From: an uncultured Actinomycetes bacterium
GTDB lineage: Bacteria > Actinomycetota > Actinomycetes > Streptosporangiales > Streptosporangiaceae
Direction of reading: 5' to 3'
DNA: 64,000 nt
NCBI GenBank assembly: GCA_963828445.1
Contig: CAWHFP010000014.1
Location: 37,565 to 101,564 of the forward strand
Shown here: piece by piece, positions 7,734 through 28,160 of the stretch
How the letters are laid out: each line of letters begins with the position of its first letter
Numbering within the stretch: the stretch's first letter is position 1
Position numbers and translations under genes: made by a program
Notes under the pieces: generated by a model
Told to the model about the DNA's origin: nothing
Databases searched by the model: none
Seen by the model: only the letters and a program-made list of their open reading frames with translations

Positions 7734-7951
7734 CGAAAACCGACCACCTTCCGGCTGGCGGGGAGAACAGCGCGGCACGGCTGCGCCGCAGCGTACGTGG
7801 GGGGCCCGGGCGCGCGTACCGCGCGGTGGGCGAAACGAGCAGGGAGACCCGCCAGCCACATCGAAGCCTACATGGCGTCGTAATTGCCCCGACGGGAGTC
7901 CGGGGGTTCTGCTGCTGGCCGACGGCCGACGGCTGTGAAATTCTGGGCCGG

Positions 7952-10203
<2,252 letters not shown>

Positions 10204-10228
<25 letters not shown>

Positions 10229-12581
10229 AGGGTGCCGGCGGCCGTGGCCGAGCCGGCGTAGTCCCGGGCCGGGACCGTCTGGCAGCTGCTCTGCACCCAG
10301 GACTCGATCGTGCTGGCGGTCGCGCCCCGGCCACCCCCGGGGCCGCCGCCCCCGAAACCGCCACCCGAGCCGCTGAGCAGGAAGAACTTCAGCTGGCCGG
10401 TCTTGACCAGTTGCTTGACCCGGGCCAGGGTCGGCTCCGGCACCGAGCCGCTGAAGCCGCCCATCGGCATGACCTCCTGGCCGGTGGCTTCGATGTACGG
10501 GGACGCCTCCGTCCAGGAGGACACCGCCAGCAGGTAGGAGGCGCCGTCGCGGTGGGCGCTCACGTACCGGTAGATCTCCTGCTCGCTGCCGGTCAGCGCG
10601 GTGGTGGCGCTGCCCTGGATGCCGCCCGCGCCGCCTCCGCCGAAGCCTCCGGCTCCGCCCGCGCGGGTCCGCCCGGTTCCGGCCCGGTCCCCGGAACGGT
10701 CGGCGAAGTCCCGGAACGCATCCTCGGCCGAGGCGTTCCCCCCGGCCGGCCCGCCGCCGCCAGCGGCGAAGCCGCCCATACCGCTGGACGGCCCGGCGGT
10801 GGCGTTGAACGAGCTGCCCGCGTACCTGGCGTCCAGCACCGAGCCGGCCCAGGCGGCCGGGGCCACCAGCATCGCGCCCACCCCGGCCGACAGGCCCACG
10901 GTCAGCAGCCGGGCCCGGGCCCGCCGGGTCAGCCGGACCAGGACCATGATCGCGATCCCGGCCGCCCCGGCGACCAGGGCGAGGATCCGTACCCAGGGCA
11001 GGAAGCCGGTGAAGTCGCGCCAGAGGAACCAGGCCCAGGCCACTTCGGCCGCCACCGCCACCGGCAGCAGCCAGCCGCGGGCGTCACCGGCCCGGAAGTA
11101 GCGCCAGAACATCACGATCCCGGCCGCCGACAACGCGGCCAGGGGCGGGGCCAGCGAGGCCACGTAGGCGGTGTGCGGGATGCTGCTCATCTTGCTGAAG
11201 ATCAAGCCGAACGTCAGCAGCCAGAGCCCCCACATCACGAATCCGGCCCGAACCTGGTCGGTGCGCCGCGCCCGCCGCGTCCAGAGCAGGCCGAAGATCA
11301 GCGCCAGCACGGCCAGCGGGTAGAGCCAGCCGACCTGCGAACCGAACTCGCTGCCCAGCAGCTTGGTCCAGCCCTGCCCGAAGCTGCTGCCGCCGGCCTG
11401 ACCGCCGCCAGGCCCCGCGAACCGGCCGGTGCCACCCGTGCCGGTGCCACCGGGGGCGCCGCCGAAGCCACCCGTGCCCGTCCGGCCGGGCCGGTACCAG
11501 TGCCTGTGCCCGTGCCTGGGGCTCCGCCGGGGGCGACCCCACCCGGAGTGGTACCGGTGCCTCCCGGAGCCGCACCGGTACCACCGGGCGCCGTGCCGGT
11601 ACCACCGGGCGCGGTGCCGCCGTTCCCGGCCGCTTCCCGGGTCGGGCCACCGGCTCCGCCACCGCTCACGCCGGGGCCGCTGGTGACGGAGCCGGGCACG
11701 CTGATGCCGAACCGCTCCAGGCCGTTGTAGCCGAAGACCATCGAGATGGCGCTGTTGTTGGTGGACCCGTCCACGTACGGGCGGTCCTGGGCCGGGGTGA
11801 ACGTGTACAGCGCGACCCAGGACAGCGACACCGCCAGCATGACCACCCCGGCCACCCCGACCTGCCAGATCCGGCGCCACGGCCGGGCCGGCGCGAAGAG
11901 CAGGTAGCCGATGACCAGCGCGGGCAGCACCATCCAGGCCTGCAGCATCTTGGCCTGGAAGCCCACCCCGACCCAGACCCCGGACCAGATCAGCGAGCGC
12001 AGGCGCGCCTCCATCACGGCGCGCTGGTAGGCGTCGGCCGCCAGCACCAGGCACATGGTCAGCAGGCCGTCTTCCATGCTGTGCCCGAACATCGACGCCG
12101 CGATCGGCGTCAGCGCGAAGATCCCGGCCGCCAGCAACCCCGGCACCGGTCCGGCCCAGCGGCGAACGACCCGGTACATGGCCAGGGTGGCGATGACACC
12201 CTCGATGACCTGGGGCAACGCCAGCGACCAGGGGTGGTAGCCAAAGATCCGGGCCGACAGCGCCTGCGGAGCGAACGAGCCGGCCAGCTTGTCGATGGTG
12301 ATGGTGGCCTTGGGGTCGAAGGCGCCGTAGAAGAACGCCTTCCAGCTCACCGACATGCTCTTGACCGCGACCGAGTAGAACGGGGCCAGCCCGGCCTGGG
12401 TGATGTTCCACGCGAACAGCAGGGCGGCGACGGCGGCGACGGCGAGCAGCGCCGGCCGGGCCCAGCTGGGCTGGTCAGCGGGCGAGCGCCAGACCTGCCA
12501 GCGCCGGCGTTCCGTCCCGCCCCCGGCCCGGTCCTGATCGTGCGACGGGCTCAGCGGCGGATCAACCACGAACGTGGCCAA
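10204..12581 (-). CDS. Glycosyltransferase family 39 (ArnT/PMT-like) membrane protein with a Gly/Thr/Pro repeat insert; frame broken near 11490
   Basis: The N-terminal piece (ORF 11298-12581) reads FYSVAVKSMSVSWKAFFYGAFDPKATITIDKLAGSF... The C-terminal piece (ORF 10204-12411 frame) reads GWTKLLGSEFGSQVGWLYPLAVLAL...LKFFLLSG... The frames switch inside the GGTGTAPGGTG repeat. Confidence 0.8.
11370..11681 (-). repeat. Coding low-complexity tandem repeat (GGTGxAPGGTG units) inside the GT39 gene
   Basis: NGGTAPGGTGTAPGGTGAAPGGTGTTPGGVAPGGAPGTGTGTGTGP... continues in the other frame as GTGGFGGAPGGTGTGGTG. Confidence 0.7.
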
Positions 12582-12807: not shown

Positions 12808-14115
12808 TCAGCTCGACCGGCCGCGCCGGGACAGCGCGTCCACGCTGACCGCGGCCAGCAGGACCAGCGAGGTGACGATGTAGGTCGCCGCCGCGCTCGT
12901 TCCGAGCAGGGCCAGGCCGTTGGCGATCGCCGCCACGACCAGGCCACCGATCAGGGCGTTCAGCATCTTGCCGTGCCCGCCGAACAGGTGGGTACCGCCG
13001 ATGACCGCCGCCGCCACCGCGAACAGCACCAGCTGGCCGCCGTTGGTGTCGGTGGAGATCGACCCCAGCCGGGAGGCCAGGATGATGCCCGCGATCGCCC
13101 CGGTCAGGCCGGTCAGCACGAAGGCCAGCGTCCTGATCCGGTTCAGGCTCACGCCGGCCCGCCGGGCCGCCTCGGCGTTGCCGCCGACGGCGTAGATGTA
13201 CCGGCCGAACCGGGTCCGCCCCAGCAGGAACGTCCAGATGGCCAGCACTCCGAGGATGATGGGGACCACCCACGGCACCCCGCGCAGGGCCTGCAGGGCG
13301 GTGCCCCGGTCGGCGTTGCCGATCAGCACGACCACCACGCCGGCCACGGCCATGACCCCGATCTTCAGCGCGGTCACGCTGAGGGGCGGGGTGACCAGGC
13401 CGGCCGCCCGGCGCTGCCGGTCGCTCAGCAGCAGCATGGCCGCGGCCGCCGCCACGATCACGACCATCAAGATCCAGCCGGCCACCGGGCTGAGGTTGCC
13501 CTCGGTCAGGTCGCCGATGATCTTGTTGCTGATCGGGATGGAACCGCCGGGCCCGTGGCCGCTGCGGGCGACCAGAACGATCATCAGGCCTTCCAGCCCC
13601 AGCAGGCCGGCCAGGGTCACCACGAACGATGGCAACCCCAGCCTGGTTATCAGCAGGCCGAAGATCAGGCCGATGAAGGCCCCGGTGGCCAGCCCGAGGA
13701 TGATGGCCACCCACCACGGCAGGCTGAACACCGTCCAGGCCGTGATGACCGCGGCCACGGCGCCGGTGTACCCGACGGCCAGGTCGATCTCGCCCAGCAG
13801 CAGGACGAACACCTCGGCCATGCCCAGGATGATGTAGGGCGCGCCCTGGATCAGCAGGTTGACCAGGTTGCCCGGCGACAGGAACAGCGAGTTCCTGACC
13901 TGGAAGTAGATCACGATCGCGACCAGGCCGATGACGACCGGGAGCGCGCCACTCTCGCCGCTGCGGATGCGGCGGAACTGAATCCGCGCGTACTCGCCCA
14001 GCGAGTTGGCCATCACCTCGGGCGCGGCCGTGGCGACCTGGGCGGCCTCGCCGTTCTCAGCCGACTCGGGTGTATCGGGCGTCTCGGGCGACGGCTGGTG
14101 AGTTTCGGTGCTCAT
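12808..14115 (-). CDS. Sugar ABC transporter permease (CUT2, XylH/RbsC type)
   Basis: The ATG at 14115 overlaps the ATPase stop (ATGA). MSTETHQPS...LPVVIGLVAIVIYFQVRNSLFLSPGNLVNLLIQGAPYIILGMAEVFVLLLGEIDLAVGY... It has many TM spans. Confidence 0.9.
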   Translation of the reverse strand: MSTETHQPSPETPDTPESAENGEAAQVATAAPEVMANSLGEYARIQFRRIRSGESGALPVVIGLVAIVIYFQVRNSLFLSPGNLVNLLIQGAPYIILGMAEVFVLLLGEIDLAVGYTGAVAAVITAWTVFSLPWWVAIILGLATGAFIGLIFGLLITRLGLPSFVVTLAGLLGLEGLMIVLVARSGHGPGGSIPISNKIIGDLTEGNLSPVAGWILMVVIVAAAAAMLLLSDRQRRAAGLVTPPLSVTALKIGVMAVAGVVVVLIGNADRGTALQALRGVPWVVPIILGVLAIWTFLLGRTRFGRYIYAVGGNAEAARRAGVSLNRIRTLAFVLTGLTGAIAGIILASRLGSISTDTNGGQLVLFAVAAAVIGGTHLFGGHGKMLNALIGGLVVAAIANGLALLGTSAAATYIVTSLVLLAAVSVDALSRRGRSS

Positions 14116-15005
14116 GAGGCCTCCCCAGCGTGCTGCCCGGCCTGGACCTGGCCGGCCGGGGAATGGGTCCGGCCCGAGCGGCCGGTGGTCATGAGCTCGA
14201 CGATGGACGCGGTGTCCAGCTGTTCCACCGGCTCGACCGCGGCCATCCGGCCCAGGTACAGCACCGCGATCCGGTCCGCGCTGTTCATGACGTCGGTCAG
14301 GTTGTGCGAGATGACCAGGACGGCGATGCCGCGGCCGGACAGCGTCTCGATGAGGTCGAGCACGACCTTGGTCTGGGTCACGCCCAGGGCCGCGGTCGGC
14401 TCGTCCATGATCACCAGCTGGGCGTTCTGCATGACGGCCTTGGCCACCGCCACGGCCTGGCGCTGGCCACCCGACAGCGAGCCGACCGGCTGGCGGATCG
14501 AGCGGACCGTCACCACCGACAGGTCGGCCAGGGTCTGCTTGGCCGCCAGCTCCATGCCGATCTCGTCGAGCTGCCAGTGCTTCACTTCCTCGCGGCCGAG
14601 GAACATGTTCTGCACGATGTCCAGGTTGTCGCACAGGGCGAGGTCCTGGTACACGGTGGCGATCCCGAGGTCGGTGGCGGCCTTGGGGCTGTGCAGGTGG
14701 ACCGGCCGGCCCTGCCAGAGGATCTGGCCGTCGTCCGGCTGCCAGATGCCCGAGATCGTCTTGATCAGGGTCGACTTCCCCGCGCCGTTGTCGCCGACGA
14801 GCGCGGTGACCTTGCCCGCGGGGACCGTGAGGTTGATGTCGCTGAGGGCCCGGACGGGACCGAAGTTCTTGCCGATGCCGCGCAGTTCGAGCAGGGGCGT
14901 GTCGCCGCCGGAGCGCTCAGCCGGGTGGGTGGGAGCCGCGGGGGACGGCGCCCGGCCGCCATTGGCAGGCCGGGCGCCGTCAGCGGCGCTTGGTGTGGTC
15001 ACCAA
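14112..15005 (-). CDS. Sugar ABC transporter ATP-binding protein with a single NBD
   Basis: Walker A GDNGAGKST, Q-loop YQDLAL, signature LSGGQRQ, Walker B LVIMDEPT, H-loop VISHN. 297 aa, so one NBD only. Confidence 0.9.
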   Translation of the reverse strand: MVTTPSAADGARPANGGRAPSPAAPTHPAERSGGDTPLLELRGIGKNFGPVRALSDINLTVPAGKVTALVGDNGAGKSTLIKTISGIWQPDDGQILWQGRPVHLHSPKAATDLGIATVYQDLALCDNLDIVQNMFLGREEVKHWQLDEIGMELAAKQTLADLSVVTVRSIRQPVGSLSGGQRQAVAVAKAVMQNAQLVIMDEPTAALGVTQTKVVLDLIETLSGRGIAVLVISHNLTDVMNSADRIAVLYLGRMAAVEPVEQLDTASIVELMTTGRSGRTHSPAGQVQAGQHAGEAS

Positions 15006-15039: not shown

Positions 15040-16272
15040 TCATGGCGTGATGCTGTTGGCCTTGCAGTCCGAAGCGTAGCTACCTGCGCAAAGCTGCTTG
15101 GCCGGCACGAACTGGTCCGCGATCACGGTCTTGTTCATGTTGGACGGGGTGACCCACTCCGGCGTCAGCAGCACGGACGGGACGGCCGTCTTGGTCTGCG
15201 TGTCGGTGGTGGTGCCGTTGGCCAGCGACGCCGGCGGCTTGTCGCCCGCGCGCAGGTACATGGCCAGGGCCGCGGCGGCCTGAGCCTCCAGGTAGATCGG
15301 CTTGTAGGCGGTGCCGCACTGGTAGCCGGCCAGGATGTTCTGCAGGCCGACCAGGGTCGCGTCCTGCCCGGTGACCGGGAAGGTCTTGGGCTTGACGTTC
15401 AGCGACTGCAGGTAGTGGATGATCGGGGCGGCGTTCTCGTCGTTCGGCACCAGCACCGAGTTGATGCTCTTGTGCGCGGTGTACTGCTGCTGGAACTCGG
15501 TCTCCGCCGTGGGCGGGTCCCAGGTGCCAGCGGCCGAGCCGACCGACTTCCAGCCGCCGCCGCTGAACTTGGAGGCCAGCACGCCGTTGTAGCCCTGCGC
15601 GAACAGGGTGGCGTTGTTGTCGGTCGGGTCGCCCTTCATGACCAGCACCTGCGGGCTCTTCACGCCCCAGGCCGTCACGCAGCTCTCCAGGCCCTGGCCG
15701 ATGAGCTTGCCGACCTGGACGTTGTTGAAGCTGACGTAGTAGGCGCGGCTGCCGCCGAGGCTGATCCGGTCGTAGTCGATCACCGCGACGCCGTGCTGCT
15801 TGGCGTAGGACTCGATCTTGGCCCCGGTCCCGGAGGTCAGCGGGTCCATGATCAGGACGGTGGCGCCCTTGGTGATGTCTTCCTGGGCGTCGGTGAACTC
15901 GGTCGAGTCGCTGCCCTGGGCGTTCTGCACCGAGAACTGCGACGACGACAGGCCGGCCGACTGCAGGGCCTTGGTCAGGTACGGCGCGTCGAACTCGGTG
16001 TACCGGGCCGAGGTGACGGTGTCCGGGAGAATGACACCGACGCTGGCCTTGCTCTTGGACGCCAGCGGCTTCAGCTTGGCCATGGCCGAGAAGTCCCGGG
16101 TGAAGTCCGACGTGGAAATGCTCGGCGCGCTGCCGGACGAGCCGCCGCTGCTGGCGGAGGCGCTCGACGACGGCGACGAGCCGCCGCCACCGCTGCTGCT
16201 GCAGGCAGCGAGGGCGACACCGGCGGTGACCGCCAGCGCCGACGTCCAGCTAATTTTGGTCGTCAGATTCAA
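15040..16272 (-). CDS. Sugar ABC transporter substrate-binding lipoprotein (periplasmic-binding-protein type I, XylF-like)
   Basis: TTG start at 16272 after GAGGTGA. MNLTTKISWTSALAVTAGVALAAC (lipobox) then Ser/Gly linker ...VGVILPDTVTSARYTEFDAPYL... Confidence 0.85.
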   Translation of the reverse strand: MNLTTKISWTSALAVTAGVALAACSSSGGGGSSPSSSASASSGGSSGSAPSISTSDFTRDFSAMAKLKPLASKSKASVGVILPDTVTSARYTEFDAPYLTKALQSAGLSSSQFSVQNAQGSDSTEFTDAQEDITKGATVLIMDPLTSGTGAKIESYAKQHGVAVIDYDRISLGGSRAYYVSFNNVQVGKLIGQGLESCVTAWGVKSPQVLVMKGDPTDNNATLFAQGYNGVLASKFSGGGWKSVGSAAGTWDPPTAETEFQQQYTAHKSINSVLVPNDENAAPIIHYLQSLNVKPKTFPVTGQDATLVGLQNILAGYQCGTAYKPIYLEAQAAAALAMYLRAGDKPPASLANGTTTDTQTKTAVPSVLLTPEWVTPSNMNKTVIADQFVPAKQLCAGSYASDCKANSITP

Positions 16273-16393
16273 AAGATCACCTCGAGAGTAGGCAAGACCG
16301 CGGCCGGATGCGCCGGCAACATTGACCAGGCATCCGCCCACGCGGGAGCCGCCGCGGCCTCAGCTTTTGACGGAAACCATAAACCTGGCGGAA

Positions 16394-16409
16394 TTAACGG
16401 GGCCTTAAC
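16394..16409 (-). promoter_or_regulatory. Direct repeat GTTAA-N6-GTTAA upstream of the SBP gene (candidate OmpR-type response-regulator box)
   Basis: On the minus strand: atGTTAAggccccGTTAAttc, 11-bp spacing, in the AT-richer 198-bp gap between the RR stop and the SBP start. Confidence 0.25.
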
Positions 16410-16470
16410 ATCGCCGCCGCGTCATAAAAATAGTGTGAACAAGACGGTCCGCTAACCCGTCCGGGTGAGG

Positions 16471-17175
16471 CTACTCCGGGGCGAAACGGTAGCCCGCGCG
16501 GGGCTGGGTCAAGATCATCGGCTCGCCCCCCTCGGTCTCCAGCTTGGCCCGCAGCCGCCGGACGTAGACCCGGACGTACTCGGTCTCGGTCTCGTACCCC
16601 AGACCCCAGACCCGGCGCAGCAGGTGGGAGTGGGTCAGCAGCTTGCCGCGGTTGGTGGCCAGCTCGCGGAGCAGGGCGAACTCGGTGGGCGTCAGGTGCA
16701 CCGGCTGGCCCAGCCGGGTGACCTGCTGGCGGGCCAGGTCGATGGTGATGTCGCCGGCCGCGATGACCGGGGTCTGCGGCTCCGGCAGCACCGCCGGGCG
16801 GGTCCGGCGCAGCGTGGCGGTGATCCGGGCCAGCAGTTCCTCGATGCTGAACGGCTTGGTCAGGTAGTCGTCGGCGCCCATGTTGAGCGCGGTGACCTTG
16901 TCCCGTTCGCCGCCGCGGGCCGACACCACGATGATGGCGACCAGGGACCGCTCCCGGATCTGCCGGCACAGCTCGAACCCGTCGGCCTCGGGCAGCATCA
17001 GGTCCAGCAGCACGATGTCCGGGTCCTCGGTCTCCAGCAGCTTGAGCACCCGCATGCCGTCCTGGGACACCACGGTGTCGAACCCGCGCACGGCCAGGTT
17101 GGACCGGATCAGGTCGACGATGTTGGGGTCGTCCTCCACCACCAGGACGCGGGTGTTGGCGGTGCTGTCAGGCAT
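16471..17175 (-). CDS. OmpR/PhoB-family response regulator (KdpE-like)
   Basis: REC domain VLVVEDDPNIVDLI...DIVLLDLMLPEADG...ADDYLTKPF and winged helix LTPTEFALLRELATNRGKLLTHSHLLRRVWG...YVRVYVRRLRAKLE. Confidence 0.93.
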   Translation of the reverse strand: MPDSTANTRVLVVEDDPNIVDLIRSNLAVRGFDTVVSQDGMRVLKLLETEDPDIVLLDLMLPEADGFELCRQIRERSLVAIIVVSARGGERDKVTALNMGADDYLTKPFSIEELLARITATLRRTRPAVLPEPQTPVIAAGDITIDLARQQVTRLGQPVHLTPTEFALLRELATNRGKLLTHSHLLRRVWGLGYETETEYVRVYVRRLRAKLETEGGEPMILTQPRAGYRFAPE

Positions 17176-19705
17176 CGTCTTCCTCTCCGGCGGGAGTTCC
17201 CCCGGGCACCAGGACCAGCGCCCCGGAGGCGGCCTCGCCCGCGTCCCCGGGCACGTCGGCCGGCAGGCACACCCGGAACCGGGTCCCCCGGGGCAGCCGC
17301 TCCAGCTCGATCCGGCCCTGGTGGGCCTCGGCGATGCCCTGGGCGATGGACAGGCCGAGCCCGGCCCCGCCGGTGCGGGTCCGGCGGCGGCGGCCCGCCT
17401 CGAACGGCGCGGCCGCCACCTCGTCGGGAATGCCCGTCCCGTTGTCGGTCACGCTGATCACGACCTCGGCGTCGGCCACTTCGGCGGTGACCCGGACCTG
17501 GGTCCCGGGCGGGTTGTGGCCGACCGCGTTGTTGATGAGGTTGACGAAGACCTGTTCCAGCCGGTCGTGGTCGGCCCAGATGACCGGCAGGTTCGGGTCG
17601 CACTGGACCGAGACCGCGGTCGCGGCGGCCGGCGGCAGGCAGGCCACCGCGGCCTGGACCACCAGCGGCAGGTCGCACCAGTCGGGGGCCAGGCGCATCA
17701 GGCCCGATTCGATGGTGGAGAAGTCGAGCAGGTCGTCCACCAGCCGGCCGAGCCGGGCCGACTCGGCCGCGATGCGGTCCAGGAACCGGTCCTGTGAGCT
17801 GCGGTCCCAGGTCACGTCGGTCTGCATGAGGCTGGAGGCGTAGCCCCGGATCGCGGTCAGCGGCGTACGCAGCTCGTGGCTGAGCCGGGACAGGAAGTCC
17901 CGCTGCAGCTCGCCGGACCGGCGCAGGGCGGTGGCTTCCTGGTGGGCCAGCCCGGCCTCCTCCCGGTCCAGGGCCAGCCGCAGGGAGTGCGCGGCGTCCT
18001 CCATCAGCGCGATCTCCTCCTGGGCGGCCTTGGCGCTGGGCTGATTCCAGCTGGCCACCAGCACGGCCGGGCCGTTGGCGGCGGTGAACGGGACCAGCCG
18101 GACCCGGCGTCCCTGGCCGCTGGTGAGCTGGCGGGGTGTCCCGTCCGGGTAGGCCTGGGCCAGCGTGTGATCCGCGGCCTCGCGCAGCGCGGGCGAGGCA
18201 TCGGCCGGGTCCCAGATCGTGTCGGTGCCCTGCGGCCCGGCGTAGGCCCGCCACCGCGGCTCCTGCCCGTCCGGCCGGGTGAGCAGCGCGACCTCGTCGG
18301 CCTGCAGGCCGTGCCGCAGCGCCTGGGCCGCGATGACCAGGCCCTCGGTCACCTGCGCCGGGCCGGCCAGGTTCTCCAGCATCTCCCGGATCGTCTCCAG
18401 CACCCGGTTGCGCGCGGTGGCCTGCTCCAGCAGCCGGTCCCGCTCGATGGCGCTGGCCGCGTAGCCGGCGTACAGCGTGACCAGTTGCAGCTCGTGCCGG
18501 TGCGGCATGCCCGCCTCGGGCCGGAACACGGTGATGATGCCGCTCAGGCCGCCCGGGCCGGCCACCGGGACCGACCACGAACTGCCGACCTCGGCCAGGT
18601 CGGTCATGCCCCGGAACCGCGACCAGGCCGCACTGGAGTGGACATCGGCCTCGATGACCGGCCGCTGGGTGGCGGCGGCCAGGCCGACCGGGCCGCCGCC
18701 CGGGCCGAACGGCAGCTGCGCCCACGGGCTCAGCTCGCCGGGCGCGAACCCGAGCGTGGCCGCGCAGACCAGCGACTGATCCGGGCCGGGGCCGGACCCC
18801 GGATCGGAGACCAGGTGAATGCAGAGCCGCTCGGCGTTCAGCGCCGCGCCGAGCGCGGACATGATCAGCGACAGGCTGGACGAGGCGTCGGCCGACACCA
18901 GCCGGTCGGCCAGGCCGTGCAGCCGGGTGAGCTGACGGCGGGCGGTGGAGTCCACCGGCTGGCCGGAGATCAGCGCCACCACGTCGTCCGGGTGGGTGCT
19001 GACCGGGTCCAGGTCGGCGACGACCCGGCCCTGGCGCAGCACCACGATGCGGTCGGCCAGCCGGAACATCTGATCGATGTCGTGGCAGGCCAGCAGGATC
19101 GTGGTGCCCTTCTCGCGCAGCCCGGCGATGAGCTCCTCGACCTGAGCCGACTCCATCACCCCGAGCGAGGCGGTGGGCTCGTCCAGGGCCAGCAGCCGGG
19201 GCTTGCTGCCCATGGCCCGGGCCACGGCCACCAGCTGGCGCTGCCCGCCGGACAGCGAACTGACCCGGCGGGTGGTGTCGCGCAACGGGATGCCCAGGCT
19301 GTCGAGCAGGGCGGCCGCCGTCCGGTGGAAGCGGCTGTCGGAGAACATCATCCAGCGCGACTCGCGGCCGAGCAGCACGTTGGCCGCGATGTCCAGGTTC
19401 TCGCACAGGGCCAGGTCCTGCCAGACCACGGCCACGCCCTGCCGGGCCGCGGCGGCCGGGTCCGGGCCGACCCGGCGGCCGGAGATGTAGATCTCGCCCT
19501 GACTGGGGGCGATGTCCCCGGCGATACAGCGCACCAGGGTGGTCTTGCCGGCGCCGTTCTCGCCGGCCAGCGCGATCAGCTCGCCCGGGCGGACGGTCAG
19601 GCTCACGCCGTCCAGGGCCTGGACCGCACCGAACCGGGCGGACAGACCGGACACCGACAGCAGCGGCGTCACCGCGGGCTGGGCCAACTCGGAGGCTGCG
19701 ACCAT
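17168..19705 (-). CDS. Soluble sensor histidine kinase with an N-terminal ABC-type ATPase domain (NBD-GAF-GAF-HisKA-HATPase_c)
   Basis: Residues 1 to about 255 form a full NBD (GENGAGKTT, WQDLAL, LSGGQRQ, LLALDEPT, LACHD). Two GAF-like regions follow, then the H-box FLSRLSHELRTPLTAIRGY, N-box NLINNAVGH, and G-boxes DNGTGIP and GGAGLGLSIA. There are no TM segments. The stop overlaps the RR start by 8 nt (ATGCCTGA). Confidence 0.9.
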   Translation of the reverse strand: MVAASELAQPAVTPLLSVSGLSARFGAVQALDGVSLTVRPGELIALAGENGAGKTTLVRCIAGDIAPSQGEIYISGRRVGPDPAAAARQGVAVVWQDLALCENLDIAANVLLGRESRWMMFSDSRFHRTAAALLDSLGIPLRDTTRRVSSLSGGQRQLVAVARAMGSKPRLLALDEPTASLGVMESAQVEELIAGLREKGTTILLACHDIDQMFRLADRIVVLRQGRVVADLDPVSTHPDDVVALISGQPVDSTARRQLTRLHGLADRLVSADASSSLSLIMSALGAALNAERLCIHLVSDPGSGPGPDQSLVCAATLGFAPGELSPWAQLPFGPGGGPVGLAAATQRPVIEADVHSSAAWSRFRGMTDLAEVGSSWSVPVAGPGGLSGIITVFRPEAGMPHRHELQLVTLYAGYAASAIERDRLLEQATARNRVLETIREMLENLAGPAQVTEGLVIAAQALRHGLQADEVALLTRPDGQEPRWRAYAGPQGTDTIWDPADASPALREAADHTLAQAYPDGTPRQLTSGQGRRVRLVPFTAANGPAVLVASWNQPSAKAAQEEIALMEDAAHSLRLALDREEAGLAHQEATALRRSGELQRDFLSRLSHELRTPLTAIRGYASSLMQTDVTWDRSSQDRFLDRIAAESARLGRLVDDLLDFSTIESGLMRLAPDWCDLPLVVQAAVACLPPAAATAVSVQCDPNLPVIWADHDRLEQVFVNLINNAVGHNPPGTQVRVTAEVADAEVVISVTDNGTGIPDEVAAAPFEAGRRRRTRTGGAGLGLSIAQGIAEAHQGRIELERLPRGTRFRVCLPADVPGDAGEAASGALVLVPGGTPAGEEDDA

Positions 19706-19764
19706 TCACTCATTGTGTGGCCTGTCCGGCCAGCTCGCCAATTGCGGCGCTATCGTTCGGTGCA

Positions 19765-22700
19765 ATGGACAACACCCGGGCCGCCGGGCCCGCCCGCGAC
19801 GAGCCCGGCGGCGTACTGTTTCCCGGCGGCGGCGAGATGGCGCGCCGGATGCAGGCCTACCCGTGGGCGGAGTCCGCCCTGGGCGATCCGCACGGCTGGC
19901 CGGCCAGCCTGCGGACCGCCTGCCGGATCTGCCTCACTTCACGGTTTCCGATGATCGTGTGGTGGGGACCGGACCTCACCTTCTTCTACAACGACGCCTA
20001 TCTGCCGCTGCTGGGCAGCAAGCACCCGGCCCTGGGCAAGCCGGGCGAGACCGTGTGGACGGAGATCTGGGACATCATCGGCCCCATGCTGGCCTCGGTG
20101 ATGACCAGCGGCGACGCCACCTGGTCGGAAGACCTGCTGCTGCCGATGGACCGGCACGGCTACTGGGAAGAGACCTACTGGACCTACTCCTACAGCCCGG
20201 TGCACGACGACGAGGGCGTGGTGCGCGGGGTGTTCACCGCGGTCAGCGACACCACCGAACAGGTCATCGGCGCGCGGCGGCTGGCGGCCCTGCAGGACCT
20301 CGGGTCACTGGCAGGCCGGGCCCGCAGCGCGGCCGAGGCCAGCCAGCTGGTCGGCCGGGCGCTGGCCGGGGCGGCCGACGTCCCGTTCGCCGCCGTTTAC
20401 CTGCGCCGGCCGGATACCGGCGAGCCGGTGCTGGCCGCCACCAACGCGCCCGGGGCGCCACCGGTCCCGCTCGCCGCCGGGCCCGGCGACTGGCCCGTGG
20501 CCGACGTCCTGCGCACCGGCCAGCCGGTCACCGTGACCGACGTGGCGGCCCGGTTCGAGGGCCTGCCGTCCGGTGGCTGGGAGACCTCGCCGGCCGAGGC
20601 CATGGTGCTGCCGCTGCCCGGCGAGCTCGGCAGCCAGCCGGTGGGGGTGATGGTGCTGGCGGCCCGGGCCGGGCGGGCCCTGGACGACGCCTACCGGTCG
20701 TTCCTGGGCCTGGTCGCCCAGCAGACCAGCGCGCTGGTCAACGGGGCCGTGGCCTACCAGGTCCAGCAGCGGCGAGCCGAGGACCTGGCCGACCTGGACC
20801 GGGCCAAGACCACCTTCTTCTCCAACATCAGCCACGAGTTCCGCACCCCGCTCACCCTGATCATGGGCCCGCTGGAGGAGCTCCGCGCCCGGGTGCCGGA
20901 CACCGATGAGGCCACCCGGCAGGAACTGGACGTCATCCACCGCAACGGCCTGCGGCTGGGCAAGCTGGTCAACACGCTGCTGGACTTCTCCCGGATCGAG
21001 GCCGGGCGGATGCAGGCCCGGTACGAGCCGGTCGACCTGGCCGCCTTCACCGCCGACCTGGCCAGCGTGTTCCGGTCCGCGGTGGAACGGGCCGGGCTGG
21101 CCTACCAGGTGGACTGCCCGGCCCTGCCCCACCCGGTCCACGTGGACCAGGAGATGTGGGAGAAGGTCGTCTTCAACCTGCTCAGCAACGCGCTCAAGTT
21201 CACCTTCGAAGGCCGCATCAGCGTCTCGCTCCGCCCCGACGGCGACCAGGCCGTGCTGCGCATCGCCGACACCGGCGTCGGGGTGGCCGCCGACGAGATG
21301 CCCCGCCTGTTCGAGCGCTTTCACCGCATCCCCAACGCGCGGTCGCGGTCGAACGAGGGCAGCGGCATCGGGCTGGCACTGGTGCGGGAACTGGTCGGGC
21401 TGCACGGCGGCACGATCACCGCGGACAGCACCGAGGGATCCGGGACCGAGTTCACCATCCGGCTCCCGTTCGGCCGCGACCACCTGCCCGCCGGTCACGT
21501 GGCCGACGCGGCCGCGCCCAGCATGGTGTCGGCGGTGGCCGACCCGTTCCTGGCCGAGGCGCTGCGCTGGCTCCCGGAAAGCGTTCCCGCCGTCGGCGCC
21601 CTGCCCCCGGCCGCGGCCCGCGCCCGCCGTGGCCTGGCCGGACACCGGTGGCCCGGCCCGGGTCCTGGTCGCCGACGACAACGCCGACATGCGCGCGTAC
21701 CTGGAGCGGCTGCTTCAGGTCAGTTACGAGGTCACCACCGTCGCGGACGGGCTCACCGCCCTGGACACGATCCGGTCCGACCCCCCCGAGCTGGTGATCA
21801 GCGACGTGATGATGCCGGGGCTGGACGGCCTGGCCCTGGTGGCCGCGCTGCGCTCCGACCCGCGCACCGCCGACGTGCCGGTCCTGCTGCTGTCGGCCCG
21901 GGCCGGCCAGGAGGCGGCGATCGAAGGGCTGGAGGCCGGCGCCGACGACTACCTGGTCAAGCCGTTCTCGGCCGCCGAGCTGCTGGCCCGGGTCCGGGCC
22001 AACGTCGAGCTGGTCCGGCTGCGTACCCATCACAACCGGTGGCGGGCGGCCGTGATCGACTCGCTGCACGAGGGGTTCTTCCTGTGCGACGAGACCGGCG
22101 CCGTGACCGAGATCAACGCGGCCTTCACCGACATCCTCGGGTACGGCCCGGACGGCCTGCCGTACCCGGCGGCGCACCCCTGGTGGCCGCGGGCCGACAC
22201 CGACCCGGAGGGCTACCGCCAGGTCAGTGCGGTCTTCGAGCAGCTCAAGGACGAGAGCCGGGGCAGCTTCGTGGCCCCGGTCACGCATAAGGACGGGCAC
22301 CGGCTGTGGGTGGCGGCCAGCTTCAACGAGGTGCACGACCCCGACACCGGGCGTCGCGTGGTGGTGGGCACGCTGCGGGACATCACCGCCGAGCACTACG
22401 CCGGCCAGCGCGAGCAGGCCCTGGCCGCCATGGGCCTGCTGCTGTCCCAGGCCACCAGCGTCCCCCAGGCCATCGAGGGTGCCCTGCACGAACTGCAGCG
22501 GCTCTGGCGGGCCCCCCGTGCCCTGGCCGTGACCTGGGACGACGGTGACCAGCCGACGCTGCTGGGCACCGGCCCGGCGCGCGGCTGGGACGCGCTCCCG
22601 GCTCCGCTGCGCGAGGAGATCGGGGTCCTGCGGCAGCGGCCGCCGCTGACGCCCACCGACGGGACGGGGCCCGCGGTCGGGGTCACCGTCGTGCATCCGC

Positions 22701-23911
22701 AGGGTCTGCTGGTGGTGTGGCTCGAGCTGGGCGTGGGCCGCCCGTTCAGCGCCGAGGACCGGGCCCTGCTCGCGCTGCTGTGCGGCTACCTGGGCCAGGC
22801 GCTGCACCGGGTCCACCAGAGCGACCAGCAGCGGGAGACCGCCCTGGTGCTGCAGCGGGCCATCCTCGGCCCGGCCCGGCTGCCCGCGGGTTTCGCGGCC
22901 CGGTACGAGCCCGCCAACCGCCCGCTCGAGGTCGGCGGGGATTGGTTCGACATCGTCGAGCTGCCCGACGGCCGGACCGGCATCGTGGTCGGCGACTGTG
23001 TCGGGCACGGGCTCGACGCGGCCACCGTGATGGGCCAGCTGCGCAGCGCCTGCCGGGCCCTGCTGCTGCAGGACGCCAGCGCGGCCCAGACCCTGAGCGC
23101 CATGGACCGGTTCGCGGCCCTGATCCCGGGCGCGATCTGCAGCACGGTGTTCTGCGGCATCCTCGACCCGGACGCGAGCCGGCTGACCTACAGCAGCGCG
23201 GGCCACCCGCCCGGCATCCTGGCCTGGCCGGACGGCCGCGTCGAACTGCTCGACGGCGGCCGCTCGTACCCGCTCGCGGTCCGGCCCGGCATCGAGCGCA
23301 CCGAGGCCAGCTGCGCCGTACCGGCCCGGGCCACCCTGCTGCTGTACACCGACGGGCTGGTCGAGCGGCGCCGCCGGTCGGTCAACGCCGGCATCGCCCA
23401 GGCCGGGACGGTGCTGCTCGCGGGGGGCGAGGCCGGGGTGGAGGAGCTGGCCACCGAGCTGATGACCACCATGGCGCCGGACGGTGGCTACGAGGATGAC
23501 GTGGCCTTCGTCATGTACCGGCACCCGGCCCCGCTGGACCTGGCCTTCCCGGCCGAATCGGCCCAGCTGGCGCCGGTCCGGTCCGCGCTGCGGGACTGGC
23601 TGAACCGGTGCGCGCTCACCCACCGGGCCGCTCAGGACGTGCTGGTCGCGGCGGGTGAGGCCTGCGCCAACGCGATCGAGCACGGCCACCGCCACGCCCC
23701 TGGGGAGCAGGTCCGCCTGCACGCGGCCGCGACCGTTTCGCAACTGCGCCTCACCGTGACCGATACCGGCCGGTGGAAGGATTCCCAGCCGGATGGCAAC
23801 CCGCACCGCGGGCACGGCATCCCGCTGATGCGCGCGCTCATGCACCACGTCACCATCGAGCCGGGCTCGGCCGGCACCATCGTCGACATGCAGCTCAGGA
23901 TCTCGTCATGA
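19765..23911 (+). CDS. Multidomain sensor: PAS-GAF-HisKA-HATPase-REC-PAS-GAF-PP2C(SpoIIE)-RsbW-like ATPase; frame broken near 21620
   Basis: Frame 1 (ORF 19717-22290): WPASLRTACRICLTSRFPMIVWWGPDLTFFYNDAYLPLLG (PAS), GAF, FFSNISHEFRTPLT, GSGIGLALVRELV. Frame 2 (ORF 20906-23911): ARVLVADDNADMRAYL...VISDVMMPGLDG (REC), PAS, GAF, PP2C (EVGGDWFDIVELPDGRTGIVVGDCVGHG...LLLYTDGLVE), C-terminal EACANAIEHG...GHGIPLM. Confidence 0.85.
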
Positions 23912-25344: not shown

Positions 25345-27060
25345 TCAGTGGGACTCGCGGTTTACCTCGTCGCCGCTGGCGCCGCGCAGGAAGTCCAGGT
25401 CGGCACCGGTCTCGGCGCCCTGCACGCTGTTGACGTAGAGCAGCTCCCAGCCCCGGCGCGGCCTGGCCACCGCGTCCGCCATGGCCTGCGCGACCGGCCG
25501 CTCGGCCAGTTCGTCGTCGCTGAGCTCGACGTCGACCCGGCGCCCGGGCACGTCGAGCACGATCCAGTCGCCGGTCCGGATCCGGCTCAGCGGGCCACCC
25601 GTCGCACCCTCGGGCGAGACGTGCAGGACCACGGTCCCGTAGGCGGTGCCGCTCATCCGCCCGTCGCAGATGCGCACCATGTCGCGGACGCCCTCCCGCA
25701 GCAGCTTGGCCGGCATCGGCATGTTCGACACCTCGGGCATGCCCGGGTAGCCCTTGGGACCGCAGCCCCGCAGGACCAGCACCGAGTCGGCGTCCACCTC
25801 GAGGTCCTCGTCGTCCAGCCGGCTGTGCAGGTCCTCGATCGAGTCGAACACCACCGCCCGCCCGCGGTGCTGCAGCAGCTGCGGCGACGCGGCGGCCGGC
25901 TTGATGACCGCCCCGTTCGGGGCCAGGTTGCCGCGCAGCACGGCGATACCGGCCGCGTCCTGCACCGGCTCGTTCCGGACCGCGATCACCTCGCGGTCCC
26001 AGATCTGGGCGTCGCTCAGGTAGTCGGTCAGCGGCTTGCCGGTCATGGTCAGCGCGGACGGGTCCAGCAGGTCCCTGACCTCGCGCAGCACCGCCAGCAG
26101 GCCGCCGGCCCGGTGGAAGTCCTCCATCAGGAACTGCCCGGCCGGCTGCAGGTTGACCAGCAGCGGCACCTCGGACCCGATCCGGTCGAAGTCGTCCAGC
26201 GTGAGCGGGATGCCCAGCCGGCCCGCGATGGCCAGCAGGTGCACCACGGCGTTGGTCGACCCGCCCAGCGCGGCCAGGGCGACGATCGCGTTGTGGAACG
26301 ACGCCGCCGACAGCACCTGGCTGGGCCGCCGCTGGGACTGCACCATCTCCACCGCCAGCACCCCGGTTTCGTGCGCCTGGGCCAGCAGCCGGCTGTCCGG
26401 GGCCGGCAGCCCGGCCGTGCCGGGCAGGGTCGTGCCCAGCACCTCCGACAGCAGCCCCATCGTGGAGGCGGTGCCCATGGTGTTGCAGTGGCCCTTGCTC
26501 CGGATCATCGCCGATTCCGAGGCGGTGAAGTCGGCCTGGGACAGCTTGCCCGCCCGCACGTCCTCACTGAGCCGCCACACGTCGGTCCCGCAGCCCAGCG
26601 GCTGGCCGCGGAACGTTCCGGTCAGCATCGGGCCGCCCGGCACCACCACCGCGGGCAGGTCGACCGAGGCCGCCCCCATCAGCAGGGACGGGATGGTCTT
26701 GTCGCAGCCGCCGAGCAGCACCACCCCGTCGATGGGGTTACCCCGGATCATCTCCTCGATGGCCATGGCGGCCATGTTCCGCCACAGCATCGCGGTCGGC
26801 CGGAGGTTGGTCTCGCCCAGTCCCACCACCGGCATGTCCAGCGGGACCCCGCCCGCTGCCCAGATCCCGGCGGCCACGTGCTGACCGACCTCGGTCAGGT
26901 GCCGGTTGCAGGGCACCAGGTCCGAGGCGGTGTTGGCGATGGCGATCTGGGGGCGGCCCCGGAACGCGGAATCCGGCAGCCCCCGGCGCATCCAGGCCCG
27001 ATGCAGGTAGCCGTCCTTGTTGTCGCCGCCGTACCAGTGGTTGCTGCGCAGATCCGTCAT
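25345..27060 (-). CDS. IlvD/Edd-family dehydratase (sugar-acid dehydratase type)
   Basis: ATG at 27060: MTDLRSNHWYGGDNKDGYLHRAWMRRGLP...LLGGCDKTIPSLLMGAAS...SKGHCNTMGTASTM... Confidence 0.9.
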   Translation of the reverse strand: MTDLRSNHWYGGDNKDGYLHRAWMRRGLPDSAFRGRPQIAIANTASDLVPCNRHLTEVGQHVAAGIWAAGGVPLDMPVVGLGETNLRPTAMLWRNMAAMAIEEMIRGNPIDGVVLLGGCDKTIPSLLMGAASVDLPAVVVPGGPMLTGTFRGQPLGCGTDVWRLSEDVRAGKLSQADFTASESAMIRSKGHCNTMGTASTMGLLSEVLGTTLPGTAGLPAPDSRLLAQAHETGVLAVEMVQSQRRPSQVLSAASFHNAIVALAALGGSTNAVVHLLAIAGRLGIPLTLDDFDRIGSEVPLLVNLQPAGQFLMEDFHRAGGLLAVLREVRDLLDPSALTMTGKPLTDYLSDAQIWDREVIAVRNEPVQDAAGIAVLRGNLAPNGAVIKPAAASPQLLQHRGRAVVFDSIEDLHSRLDDEDLEVDADSVLVLRGCGPKGYPGMPEVSNMPMPAKLLREGVRDMVRICDGRMSGTAYGTVVLHVSPEGATGGPLSRIRTGDWIVLDVPGRRVDVELSDDELAERPVAQAMADAVARPRRGWELLYVNSVQGAETGADLDFLRGASGDEVNRESH

Positions 27061-27148
27061 CGTTTCGCCGCTCCCGGCCTGTCGCTCTAATATGCGGAAC
27101 GAAATGGACGTTACCCCTGCCCACGACGCGCGGACCAGGTAGCCCGGC

Positions 27149-28160
27149 GTGCGCGCGTTCGTCATCACCGGTCCCGGCCAGGCCGAAGTCCGCGACCTTG
27201 AGCCGCCCGAGCCCGGTCCGGGTCAGGTGGTGGTGGACGTGGAGCGGGCCGGGGTCTGCGGTACCGACGTCGAGTTCTACACCGGCCACATGGTGTACCT
27301 GCGCACCGGTGAGGCCCGCTACCCGGTCCGGATCGGGCACGAGTGGTGCGGCCGGGTGATCCGGGCCGGCGACGAGGACAGCGCATCCTGGGTCGGCCAG
27401 CGGGTCACCGGGGACACCATGCTCGGCTGCGGGCACTGCCACCGCTGCCGGAGCGGCCGCCAGCATCTGTGTGCGGACCGGTTCGAGATCGGGATCCGGG
27501 GCGGCTGGCCCGGCGCCCTGGCCGAGCAGCTCCTGGTCCCGGCCTCATCGCTGCTGCCGCTCCCGGACGCCATCGGCGCCACCGCCGGGGCCCTGGTCGA
27601 GCCGGGCGGCAACGCGCTCCGCGCGGTCCGGGCCGCGCAGGTCGCTCGCGGGCCAGCGCGTCCTGGTCATGGGCCCCGGCACGATAGGCCTGCTCAGCGC
27701 CCTGATCGCCCGTTCCCGGGGCGCCGACGTGCACCTGCTGGGCCAGGACGACCGGTCGCTGCGGTTCGCCCGCCGCCTCGGCTTCGATCAGGCCTGGGTC
27801 CGCGACACCCTGCCGGGCGGCACATTCGACGCCATCATCGACGCCTCCACCGGCCGTGAGCTGCCCGCGCTGGCCACCGAGCTGGTCGAGCCGGGCGGCC
27901 GGATCGGCTACATCGGCCTGTCATCCGAGCCCAGCCTGATCGACACCCGGACCCTGGTCCTCAAGGACGTCACCGCCACCGGCGTGCTCAGCGCGTCCGG
28001 CGGCCTGGCCGAGACCATCGCCCTCTACGCCGACGGCGCCGTCGATCCCGAGCCCATCGTCGCCGCCACCGTGGGGCTGGCCGAGGCGGCCACCGTGCTG
28101 GCCGGCCGCCGGCCCCCCGAATGGGGCGACGCCCCCAAGGTGCACATCGACCCTGCTTGC
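27149..28160 (+). CDS. Zinc-type medium-chain alcohol/polyol dehydrogenase, frame broken near 27645; 3' end uncertain
   Basis: VERAGVCGTDVEFYTG...GHEWCGRVI...GCGHCHRCRSGRQHLC, then in another frame GQRVLVMGPGTIGLLSALIARSRGADV...PKVHIDP. No in-frame stop occurs at the expected end. Confidence 0.7.

Follow-up and report, generated by a model that had tools for sequence, protein, structure and literature searches.

A soluble histidine kinase with a fused ABC-transporter ATPase domain, encoded beside a sugar importer in uncultured Actinomycetota, as a candidate sensor of transport activity

In the maltose system of Escherichia coli, the nucleotide-binding domain (NBD) subunit of an ATP-binding cassette (ABC) importer, MalK, doubles as a signalling element that, through its transport cycle, controls MalT, the transcription regulator of the regulon. 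MalK sequesters MalT via a C-terminal regulatory domain, with neither a phosphorelay nor a fusion, unlike the protein described here: a histidine kinase in which an ABC NBD forms the N-terminus of the polypeptide itself. Its gene lies in a stretch of 64,000 nucleotides, referred to here as the window, from an uncultured Actinomycetes bacterium of the Streptosporangiaceae (GenBank assembly GCA_963828445.1, contig CAWHFP010000014.1, positions 37,565 to 101,564), and it heads a gene cassette that continues with a response regulator and a predicted sugar importer. The kinase probably lets the cell read the activity of this transporter directly as a phosphorylation signal.

By analogy we liken the system most to BceAB-BceS and PstSCAB-PhoU-PhoR, in which transporter activity is reported to a kinase that controls the transporter genes; here the coupling element would be the fused motor domain. 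In BceAB-BceS of Firmicutes (PMC8534201, PMC6978683; complex structure, PMC10314905) the kinase reads the activity of an ABC transporter, signalling depends on the ATPase cycle of that transporter and the regulator induces the transporter operon, all of which resembles our proposal. BceS, however, is an intramembrane-sensing kinase with two transmembrane (TM) segments that lacks an NBD and forms a non-covalent complex with a MacB-like exporter, itself marked by a large extracellular domain, whereas the present kinase is soluble, carries its NBD covalently, is encoded with a CUT2 importer dependent on a substrate-binding protein (SBP) and occurs in Actinomycetota. In the Pst system (PMC6978683), too, an SBP-dependent ABC importer reports its state from its NBD side, the recipient being a HisKA kinase that has a PhoR-like catalytic core and an OmpR/PhoB-family regulator. 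There the PhoU adaptor stands between PstB and the PAS domain of membrane-anchored PhoR, whereas here there is no PhoU and no membrane anchor, and the NBD is within the kinase.

XylFII-LytS and ChvE-VirA resemble the locus in another respect, as a Peripla_BP_4 protein of the XylF/ChvE type feeds a two-component system which, in the case of XylFII-LytS, controls a xylose CUT2 transporter operon (PMC8050422). In both systems the SBP touches the extracytoplasmic sensor of a membrane kinase directly. The kinase described here has no extracytoplasmic part, so any signal from the SBP must pass through the permease. N-terminal transporter modules fused as sensors are found in KsAmt5 (PMC8534201) and in the SLC5/STAC kinases CbrA and CrbS (PMC9100948, PMC5715377), but these are membrane-embedded channel or carrier domains, unlike the present fusion, which has only the soluble ABC ATPase motor. 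A 2021 review of kinase diversity gives membrane-transporter fusions (KsAmt5) and the non-covalent BceAB-BceS as the only links to transporters. Bacteriophytochromes share the general layout only, a helical spine that bears tandem GAF-type modules and continues into HisKA-HATPase_c; their PAS_2-GAF-PHY core is absent from the kinase, which gave no PAS_2 or PHY matches. Searches of freely accessible full-text literature, and two reviews, yielded no description of an NBD-histidine kinase fusion, and candidate papers naming both Pfam families held domain-count tables only, with no fusion described. According to a first-pass annotation of the window, no characterised kinase is known to carry a fused transporter motor, and these searches are in line with that. 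On Pfam and motif criteria the kinase is assigned to the ABC NBD, HisKA/HATPase_c and GAF families, and it falls outside every characterised transporter-sensing system considered (Bce, Pst/PhoR, Amt-HK, SLC5/STAC, XylFII-LytS or ChvE-VirA).

The open reading frame (ORF) of the kinase gene comprises 845 codons and a stop, and its translation contains zero internal stops. Third-position GC content (GC3) keeps a single phase, at 0.95-0.99, along the entire ORF, which speaks against any concealed frameshift where the NBD and the GAF domain meet (~18930-18960). The uninterrupted 845-aa frame of the first-pass annotation is therefore upheld by translation and GC3, to which we add its strand (minus). 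ABC_tran (PF00005) matched residues 31-179 over the full length of the model (114.6 bits against a cut-off of 25). The NBD carries GENGAGKTT (48-56), WQDLAL (95-100), LSGGQRQ (151-157), LLALDEPT (171-178) and LACHD (205-209), and its key residues (G48-T55, Q96, L151-Q155, D175-E176 and H208) are all invariant in an alignment of 40 family members. The kinase core carries SHELRTPL (609-616), NLINNAVGH (722-730), DNGTGIP (754-760) and GGAGLGLSIA (779-788). All of the ABC and HisKA/HATPase motifs reported earlier were located in the translation, and the Pfam scan that had been suggested as a check called ABC_tran strongly and placed GAF_2, HisKA and HATPase_c above their gathering cut-offs as well.

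Within the same 40 sequences, S609-L616 is invariant, with the phospho-acceptor His610 lying in H-E-L-R-T-P. The H-E-x-x-T phosphatase motif of the DHp domain is also invariant and, from established knowledge of HisKA proteins, a bifunctional kinase/phosphatase is therefore expected. In the HATPase_c domain, which gave Foldseek matches to HK853, N722/N726, D754-G-x-G and G782-L-G are invariant. The kinase core as a whole matches PhoR and PnpS models at E=1e-43 to 1e-50, below their cut-offs (148 against 334 bits for PhoR). No TM span was found in the kinase by Kyte-Doolittle analysis. Its highest 19-residue mean is 1.67, and the neighbouring permease in the same scan exceeds 2.5 and has 123 windows above 1.6. 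Given that the maximum of the kinase is only 1.67 and falls inside the HATPase domain, we consider the protein soluble, as its earlier description as a cytoplasmic kinase had it.

Two GAF-like regions had been described between the NBD and the kinase core, of which the first stands by sequence and the second only as a predicted fold. GAF_2 matched residues 279-421 of the full-length protein (E=1e-8, above the gathering cut-off), and the isolated segment 261-430 matched GAF_2 at 40.7 bits (E=3e-10) and GAF at 36.5 bits (E=8e-9). The second region (~431-600) gave zero Pfam matches even at E<=10, and an hhalign comparison with the first GAF domain returned a probability of 0.2%, so there is no profile similarity. 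A second GAF domain was rejected by sequence on these two grounds, and the region is kept only as a predicted α/β domain. AlphaFold2 places this α/β module (449-560) between long helices at 403-444 and 562-627, the latter a continuous 66-residue helix that leads into the DHp domain. Continuous helices join the kinase domains in the model, which has a mean pLDDT of 71 and a pTM of 0.35, with domain orientations poorly predicted. As these orientations are not well predicted, whole-chain Foldseek searches gave TM-scores of only ~0.2 for the top matches, which were bacteriophytochromes (PDB 9eut, 8upk) and which lend support to the predicted α/β module. The Pfam scan of the kinase found no PAS_2, PHY, Amt, SSF or STAC matches and no photosensory signature. 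Residues 251-273, which link the NBD to the GAF domain, rank among the most conserved stretches of the whole kinase in alignments of 40 and 75 sequences; A255, R256, Q258-L262, G264, L265, R268, L269, S271 and A272 are invariant among the 40. The model has a helix at 255-270 in this linker, but with pLDDT<50.

A fusion of this kind could be an artefact or a pseudogene, in which adjacent genes for an ABC ATPase and a GAF kinase have been joined by an assembly indel. The first-pass annotation had raised this scenario itself, and two genes nearby in the window do appear to be frameshifted, which shows that this sequence is not free of indel errors or pseudogenes. Against it stand the single GC3 phase through the whole kinase ORF, the conservation of the junction linker and the recurrence of the fusion elsewhere. 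The NBD and the kinase core share one stop-free frame in 78 of 80 independent assemblies, which stem from different projects and methods and represent the best 80 of 182 relatives found when one genome per GTDB species was scanned. Among 5.8 billion proteins, >=120 distinct clusters at 90% identity matched (68-98% identical to the query over 95-100% coverage), every one containing PF00005, PF13185, PF00512 and PF02518, and full-length homologues number in the hundreds. We observe a real and conserved fusion; an assembly artefact is effectively refuted. One in-frame stop was seen within the NBD-kinase ORF of a single locus (L018, 10001-12445), a pseudogene or an assembly error.

The best 80 relatives all come from metagenome-assembled genomes (MAGs) of soil or peat, labelled as Streptosporangiaceae bacterium, uncultured Actinomycetes or Actinomycetota, or Solirubrobacter-type. 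An exhaustive HMMER search of 1.84 billion representatives at 50% identity recovered ~20-25 full-length clusters with identity down to 41%, below which the matches were ordinary tandem-NBD sugar ATPases of ~500 aa. Family members occur in MAGs labelled Streptosporangiaceae, Solirubrobacteraceae, Acidimicrobiales, Egibacteraceae and Nitriliruptoraceae, the distant ones in the last four, and span several classes of Actinomycetota. There are no cultured isolates among the named sources of the family, every one of which is a MAG. Database labels are generic ('ATP-binding cassette domain-containing protein' at NCBI; 'histidine kinase/ABC-type ... ATPase subunit' at JGI), and the family is already catalogued but uncharacterised.

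The most telling context of the kinase gene, overlooked in the first-pass annotation, is the importer cassette. The regulator gene starts within the end of the kinase gene, overlapping its stop by the 8 nt ATGCCTGA; this is the coupling to an OmpR-type regulator reported earlier, and the REC and Trans_reg_C domains bear out the assignment. The regulator is 78-99% identical across loci L001-L080 and adjoins the kinase gene in all of them. Its best equivalog models, MtrA and PhoB, both score below cut-off, so we do not regard it as an orthologue of a named regulator. By their Pfam and model matches, the genes downstream of the regulator form a CUT2-type monosaccharide importer. The SBP matches the xylF and ChvE models below cut-off and has a lipobox (...LAAC) followed by a Ser/Gly linker; the transporter's own ATPase, NBD2, matches the N-halves of CUT2 ATPases; and the permease ATG (14115) overlaps the NBD2 stop by 4 nt. 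The predicted substrate is a monosaccharide, and the SBP is XylF/ChvE-like. No sugar-catabolic genes that could hint at the sugar lie beside the cassette; its flanks hold a fused E1 dehydrogenase/transketolase-type protein (7610-10228, plus strand) and a dihydroxy-acid dehydratase (25345-27222, minus strand).

The order NBD-kinase, regulator, SBP, NBD, permease(s) recurs wherever flanking sequence suffices among the 80 loci, the transporter block being inverted yet still adjacent in 3 of the 80, and it extends to lineages that are only ~40-55% identical (L083, L085, L086, L093-L096). Pfam analysis of the five cassette genes finds the SBP and a BPD_transp_2 permease co-encoded with the fused NBD, with which they may associate physically, and no PhoU or PAS domain in any of the five. 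In two lineages of Acidimicrobiales- and Nitriliruptoraceae-like origin, the permease gene is followed by one for a DUF6008/FG-GAP (UnbV_ASPIC) protein of ~750 aa (L083, 14521-16743; L085, 14420-16687), which may be a sixth member of the cassette there.

A putative operator lies in the spacer of 129 bp that separates the regulator gene from that of the SBP, where we found the direct repeat GTTAAGGCCCCGTTAA with an 11-bp periodicity. GTTAA-N6-GTTAA occurs once in the window (0.06 expected by chance) and is present in the same spacer in 46 of 75 loci; across 1.5 Mb of related loci, 45 of its 53 matches fall in this spacer. Aligned spacers share the layout TTCAC-N6-TTTAC, ~11 nt, GTTAA-N6-GTTAA, 12 nt and a −10-like TAnGGT, which places the repeat at the −35 position of the SBP promoter. 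Tandem half-sites spaced by 11 bp and abutting the −10 region are a hallmark of OmpR/PhoB-type activator sites. Given this layout, the regulator would activate the SBP-NBD-permease operon. An autoregulatory site of this type was rejected, as there is no GTTAA-N6-GTTAA at <=1 mismatch upstream of the kinase gene. The kinase ATG (19705, minus strand) and that of a divergent hybrid kinase (19765, plus strand) are separated by 59 bp (19706-19764), a spacer that likewise lacks the repeat. A −10-like CACAAT ends 6 nt before the kinase ATG, and its placement suggests a leaderless kinase transcript.

These data allow us to propose, tentatively and with a confidence that stops just short of an even balance, that the NBD pair of the kinase dimer binds to the permease and that the ATP cycles coupled to transport are turned into phosphorylation, by which the transporter is induced. 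HisKA kinases are parallel homodimers, and the present kinase would be one built on a helical spine of linker helix, GAF domain, helix, α/β module, 66-residue helix and DHp domain, with its two fused NBDs side by side at the far tip. This NBD pair would bind the permease dimer at its cytoplasmic coupling helices, replacing or exchanging with an NBD2 dimer. When a sugar-loaded SBP docks outside, the NBDs would close on ATP, hydrolyse it and reopen, and this cycle would pass down the spine and shift the DHp/CA core between its phosphatase and kinase states. The phosphorylated regulator would then bind the TTCAC/GTTAA repeats and activate the transporter operon. Such a system would read transport activity, as flux or occupancy, instead of free ligand, and a cytoplasmic metabolite may feed in as well, via the GAF domain. 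The evidence we bring for docking comprises the conservation of the fusion, the motif invariance, the Q-loop similarity, the synteny, a lineage without NBD2, the residual co-variation, the operator, the predicted structure and the H-E-x-x-T motif. The mechanism is drawn from sequence and genomic context, and the hosts so far are all uncultured.

As to its origin, the fused NBD has its best NCBIfam matches in the N-halves of YtfR, AraG, XylG, GguA, MglA and RbsA (E=1e-52 to 1e-41); YtfR gives 178.8 bits against a cut-off of 850, with model positions 1-247 of 492 covered. The locus resembles the CUT2 importers RbsABC, XylFGH and GguAB/ChvE in that both NBDs match such N-halves, the permease is of the BPD_transp_2 family and the SBP of the Peripla_BP_4 family. 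Classical CUT2 ATPases, however, are tandem NBDs of ~500 aa, whereas both ATPases here are single NBDs, one of them fused to the kinase, and all of their CUT2 scores fall far below the equivalog cut-offs. The fused NBD is 43% identical to NBD2 (BLASTP, E=2e-54), which shows it, at the level of sequence, to be a paralogue of the transporter's own ATPase. Both are 30-38% identical to E. coli N-halves and 23-26% to C-halves. A split tandem ATPase, with the fused NBD and NBD2 as the two halves of an RbsA-type protein, was rejected, as both match the N-half. A PDB sequence search with the fused NBD returned generic NBDs only (Rv1281c, DppD, ABCB1) and no close CUT2 structure. We also noted a group of proteins of 829 aa (P0257 and cluster members) that JGI annotates as a CUT2 ATPase fused to a ribose/xylose-type permease.

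The catalytic motifs of the fused NBD (Walker A, Q-loop, LSGGQ, Walker B-Glu and H-loop), invariant in 40 sequences, are nearly so in 75, and by these motifs the domain appears catalytically intact and under selection as an ATPase. Comparison of the fused-NBD and NBD2 families found 65 positions that are conserved in both and identical, and 0 that are conserved in both and different. In the Q-loop and the first segment of the helical subdomain, identity between the two family consensuses reaches 71%, compared with 46% overall. In ABC importers such as MalFGK2, this segment contacts the coupling helices of the permease.

Two loci bear on whether the fused NBD could work as a transporter subunit. 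In an Egibacteraceae MAG (L084) and on an independent metagenome contig (L087, 59% identical), the operon consists of NBD-kinase, regulator, SBP and permease with no separate NBD gene. Searches with tblastn found no second NBD anywhere in either locus, which leaves the operon with the NBD of the kinase alone. Few loci show this variant (~2 of 90), and four further loci of related lineages all have NBD2. It is possible, and we hold this a little less firmly than docking itself, that the fused NBD pair is a true importer motor that powers uptake in the lineage without NBD2, each cycle switching the kinase between kinase and phosphatase.

The same docking evidence would serve a model in which the fused NBD is an output rather than an input: a kinase state set by a GAF ligand would let the NBD occupy the permease and so throttle or license transport at the post-translational level, in the manner of inducer exclusion. 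The GAF domain is a plausible metabolite sensor, and two NBDs for one permease invite competition. A decoy, however, would have no need to retain every hydrolysis motif, an N-terminal NBD on a spine running toward the DHp domain follows the usual input-to-output order of histidine kinases, and the lineage without NBD2 implies a productive NBD and not an inhibitory one. We consider this model very unlikely.

Somewhat less improbable, though still quite unlikely, is a heterodimer, in which the kinase NBD would pair with NBD2, on or off the permease, and sense its availability or nucleotide state without replacing it. In its favour, the two paralogous NBDs do not differ in their catalytic and D-loop motifs, almost every locus has NBD2, and CUT2 ATPases normally form a pseudo-heterodimer of two fused NBDs. 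Yet both NBDs resemble the canonical N-half of RbsA/XylG and neither the C-half, the kinase homodimer brings two fused NBDs together and so favours an NBD homodimer, and pairing with NBD2 is unworkable in the lineage that lacks it. Residual co-variation of the fused NBD with NBD2 (r=0.18) is also weaker than with the SBP or the permease.

Several points weigh against docking of the fused NBD on the permease. With NBD2 present in ~88 of 90 loci, most members have no need of the fused NBD for powering transport. The similarity in the Q-loop region is only suggestive, as this region is generally conserved within NBD subfamilies. In a neighbour-joining tree with E. coli CUT2 ATPases as the only outgroups, the fused NBD groups with NBD2 and the RbsA/XylG N-halves, a suggestive placement with modest support: bootstraps are 63% for the fused-NBD clade, 99% for the NBD2 clade and 44% for the two together, too low to keep them as robust sister clades. 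The direction of regulation, activation, is read from the position of the site only.

The history of the transporter block bears on the same question. Two transporter types occur, one with a single permease (59 loci) and one with two permeases and a divergent SBP (11 loci: L019, L023, L036, L037, L043, L047, L063-L065, L070 and L071). The SBP of the second type is only ~45-50% identical and its NBD2 forms a distinct clade, while the kinases at these loci are in other respects typical of the family. This type maps as 4-5 independent changes on the trees of kinase and regulator, which indicates repeated exchange of the transporter block with adjacency kept. We had expected the fused NBD to co-segregate with transporter type, and it did not. 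Fitch parsimony required one change each for SBP, NBD2 and permease, against four for the fused NBD and 4-5 each for the fused NBD, GAF region, kinase core and regulator as a set; ratios of between-type to within-type distance were 2.0-3.0 for the transporter parts and 1.06-1.09 for the parts of the two-component system, including 1.09 for the fused NBD. The fused NBD thus travels with the two-component system, while the adjacent transporter block has been exchanged several times, and any interface between them must tolerate strongly diverged permeases. Partial Mantel tests, which control for the other three parts of the two-component system and use these parts as an internal control, left residual correlations of the fused NBD with permease (r=0.25), SBP (r=0.32) and NBD2 (r=0.18), each at p=0.0005, a significance that such tests can overstate on phylogenetically structured data. 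The corresponding values were ~0 for the GAF region and the regulator and 0.08-0.11 for the kinase core. The fused NBD is not a freely exchangeable transporter part, yet it is the only part of the two-component system with significant residual co-variation with the transporter, a modest signal.

The co-evolution data are also where a free-standing switch has to be considered, in which the two NBDs of the kinase dimer would have no contact with the transporter and would act as a dimerisation clamp that depends on ATP/ADP and senses energy charge, the GAF domain would sense the real signal, such as the imported sugar or its phosphate, and the transporter would be only a target. We think this unlikely. 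In its favour, the evolution of the fused NBD follows that of the kinase rather than that of the transporter cassette, the importer almost always comes with an NBD besides the fused one, conservation of the GAF domain is high, and ABC-F, Rad50 and SMC proteins are established cases of ATP-driven sandwich dimerisation of NBDs with no partner in the membrane. Against a free switch stand the near-invariance and NBD2-like character of the segment formed by Q-loop and groove, for which no role beyond permease coupling is known, the residual co-variation of the NBD alone with permease and SBP, and an operon with no other NBD in one lineage. The link to the cassette has also survived >=4 exchanges of transporter type, although a purely regulatory link could explain this as well. 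Some probability beyond the docking of the NBD on the permease and the four alternatives is reserved for other explanations.

The positions of all features are collected in Table 1. Two genes near the cassette show the apparent frameshifts mentioned above. The divergent neighbour (19765-23911, plus strand) encodes a hybrid signalling protein with the architecture PAS-GAF-HisKA-HATPase_c-REC-PAS-SpoIIE(PP2C)-HATPase_c_2, which is a single ORF of ~1,398 aa in six related loci. In the window its halves lie in different frames, with a switch of GC3 phase near 21480-21650 and the stop of the first frame at 22290, so this gene is frameshifted by a sequencing indel or is a pseudogene. Just downstream of the permease (10204-12581, minus strand), a glycosyltransferase of the PMT_2/YkcB_C type is split over two overlapping ORFs in different frames, with a GC3 phase switch at ~11400-11700; split tblastn matches are also seen in L003. 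This is the second apparent frameshift within 13 kb.

Table 1. Features of the kinase-importer cassette, in window coordinates
Feature	Position	Strand	Residues or size	Basis and remarks
NBD-GAF-(GAF/PHY-like)-HisKA-HATPase_c histidine kinase	17168..19705	minus	845 aa	soluble; ORF, GC3, Pfam, no TM span
ABC nucleotide-binding domain	18956..19663	minus	15-250	PF00005, E=7e-33
NBD Walker A	19538-19564	minus		translation
NBD Q-loop	19406-19423	minus		translation
NBD signature	19235-19255	minus		translation
NBD Walker B + catalytic Glu	19172-19195	minus		translation
NBD H-loop	19079-19093	minus		translation
NBD-to-GAF linker, highly conserved (...ARRQLTRLHGLADRL...)	18887..18955	minus	251-273	alignment; proposed signal-transmitting helix
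GAF domain 1	18431..18886	minus	274-425	GAF_2 and GAF Pfam matches; α/β fold in model
Second α/β module, GAF/PHY-like by predicted fold only	18026..18361	minus	449-560	AlphaFold2
HisKA/DHp	17702..17905	minus	601-668	PF00512, 70.3 bits, E=1e-19
HATPase_c catalytic domain with N, G1 and G2 boxes	17258..17572	minus	712-816	PF02518, 88.5 bits, E=5e-25
OmpR/PhoB-family response regulator	16471..17175	minus	234 aa	Response_reg, 100.7 bits; Trans_reg_C, 78.8 bits
Putative operator and promoter of transporter operon	16376..16439	minus		repeat uniqueness and conserved layout
Operator part TTCAC-N6-TTTAT	16439-16424	minus
Operator part GTTAA-N6-GTTAA	16409-16394	minus
−10-like TATGGT	16381-16376	minus
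Substrate-binding lipoprotein (SBP), Peripla_BP_4, XylF/ChvE-like	15040..16341	minus		PF13407, E=5e-40; start codon uncertain
Transporter's own single-NBD ATPase (NBD2)	14112..15005	minus		PF00005, E=6e-32; start codon uncertain
CUT2-type permease, BPD_transp_2, GguB/RbsC-like	12808..14115	minus	435 aa	PF02653, E=3e-30; GguB model, 205 bits

The conversion of transporter activity into a signal is an open mechanistic question. In BceAB-BceS, PstB-PhoU-PhoR and MalK-MalT, the examples studied best, the partners are separate proteins with weak interfaces, and the motion that is transmitted is still debated. If our proposal is true, the kinase would be the first two-component sensor with an ABC motor as its input, and the ABC NBD would join the list of two-component input domains. 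Its path from NBD closure through the linker helix and the GAF spine to the DHp domain would run within one polypeptide and be open to genetic dissection, offering a compact model of flux sensing, and the cassette with its well-defined operator could serve as a portable biosensor of transport activity. It would also mean that a natural single-polypeptide flux sensor is widespread in uncultured soil Actinomycetota. As it stands, a large, phylum-wide family of putative regulators of sugar uptake in the uncultured Actinomycetota of soil and peat has gone unnoticed because of generic pipeline labels.

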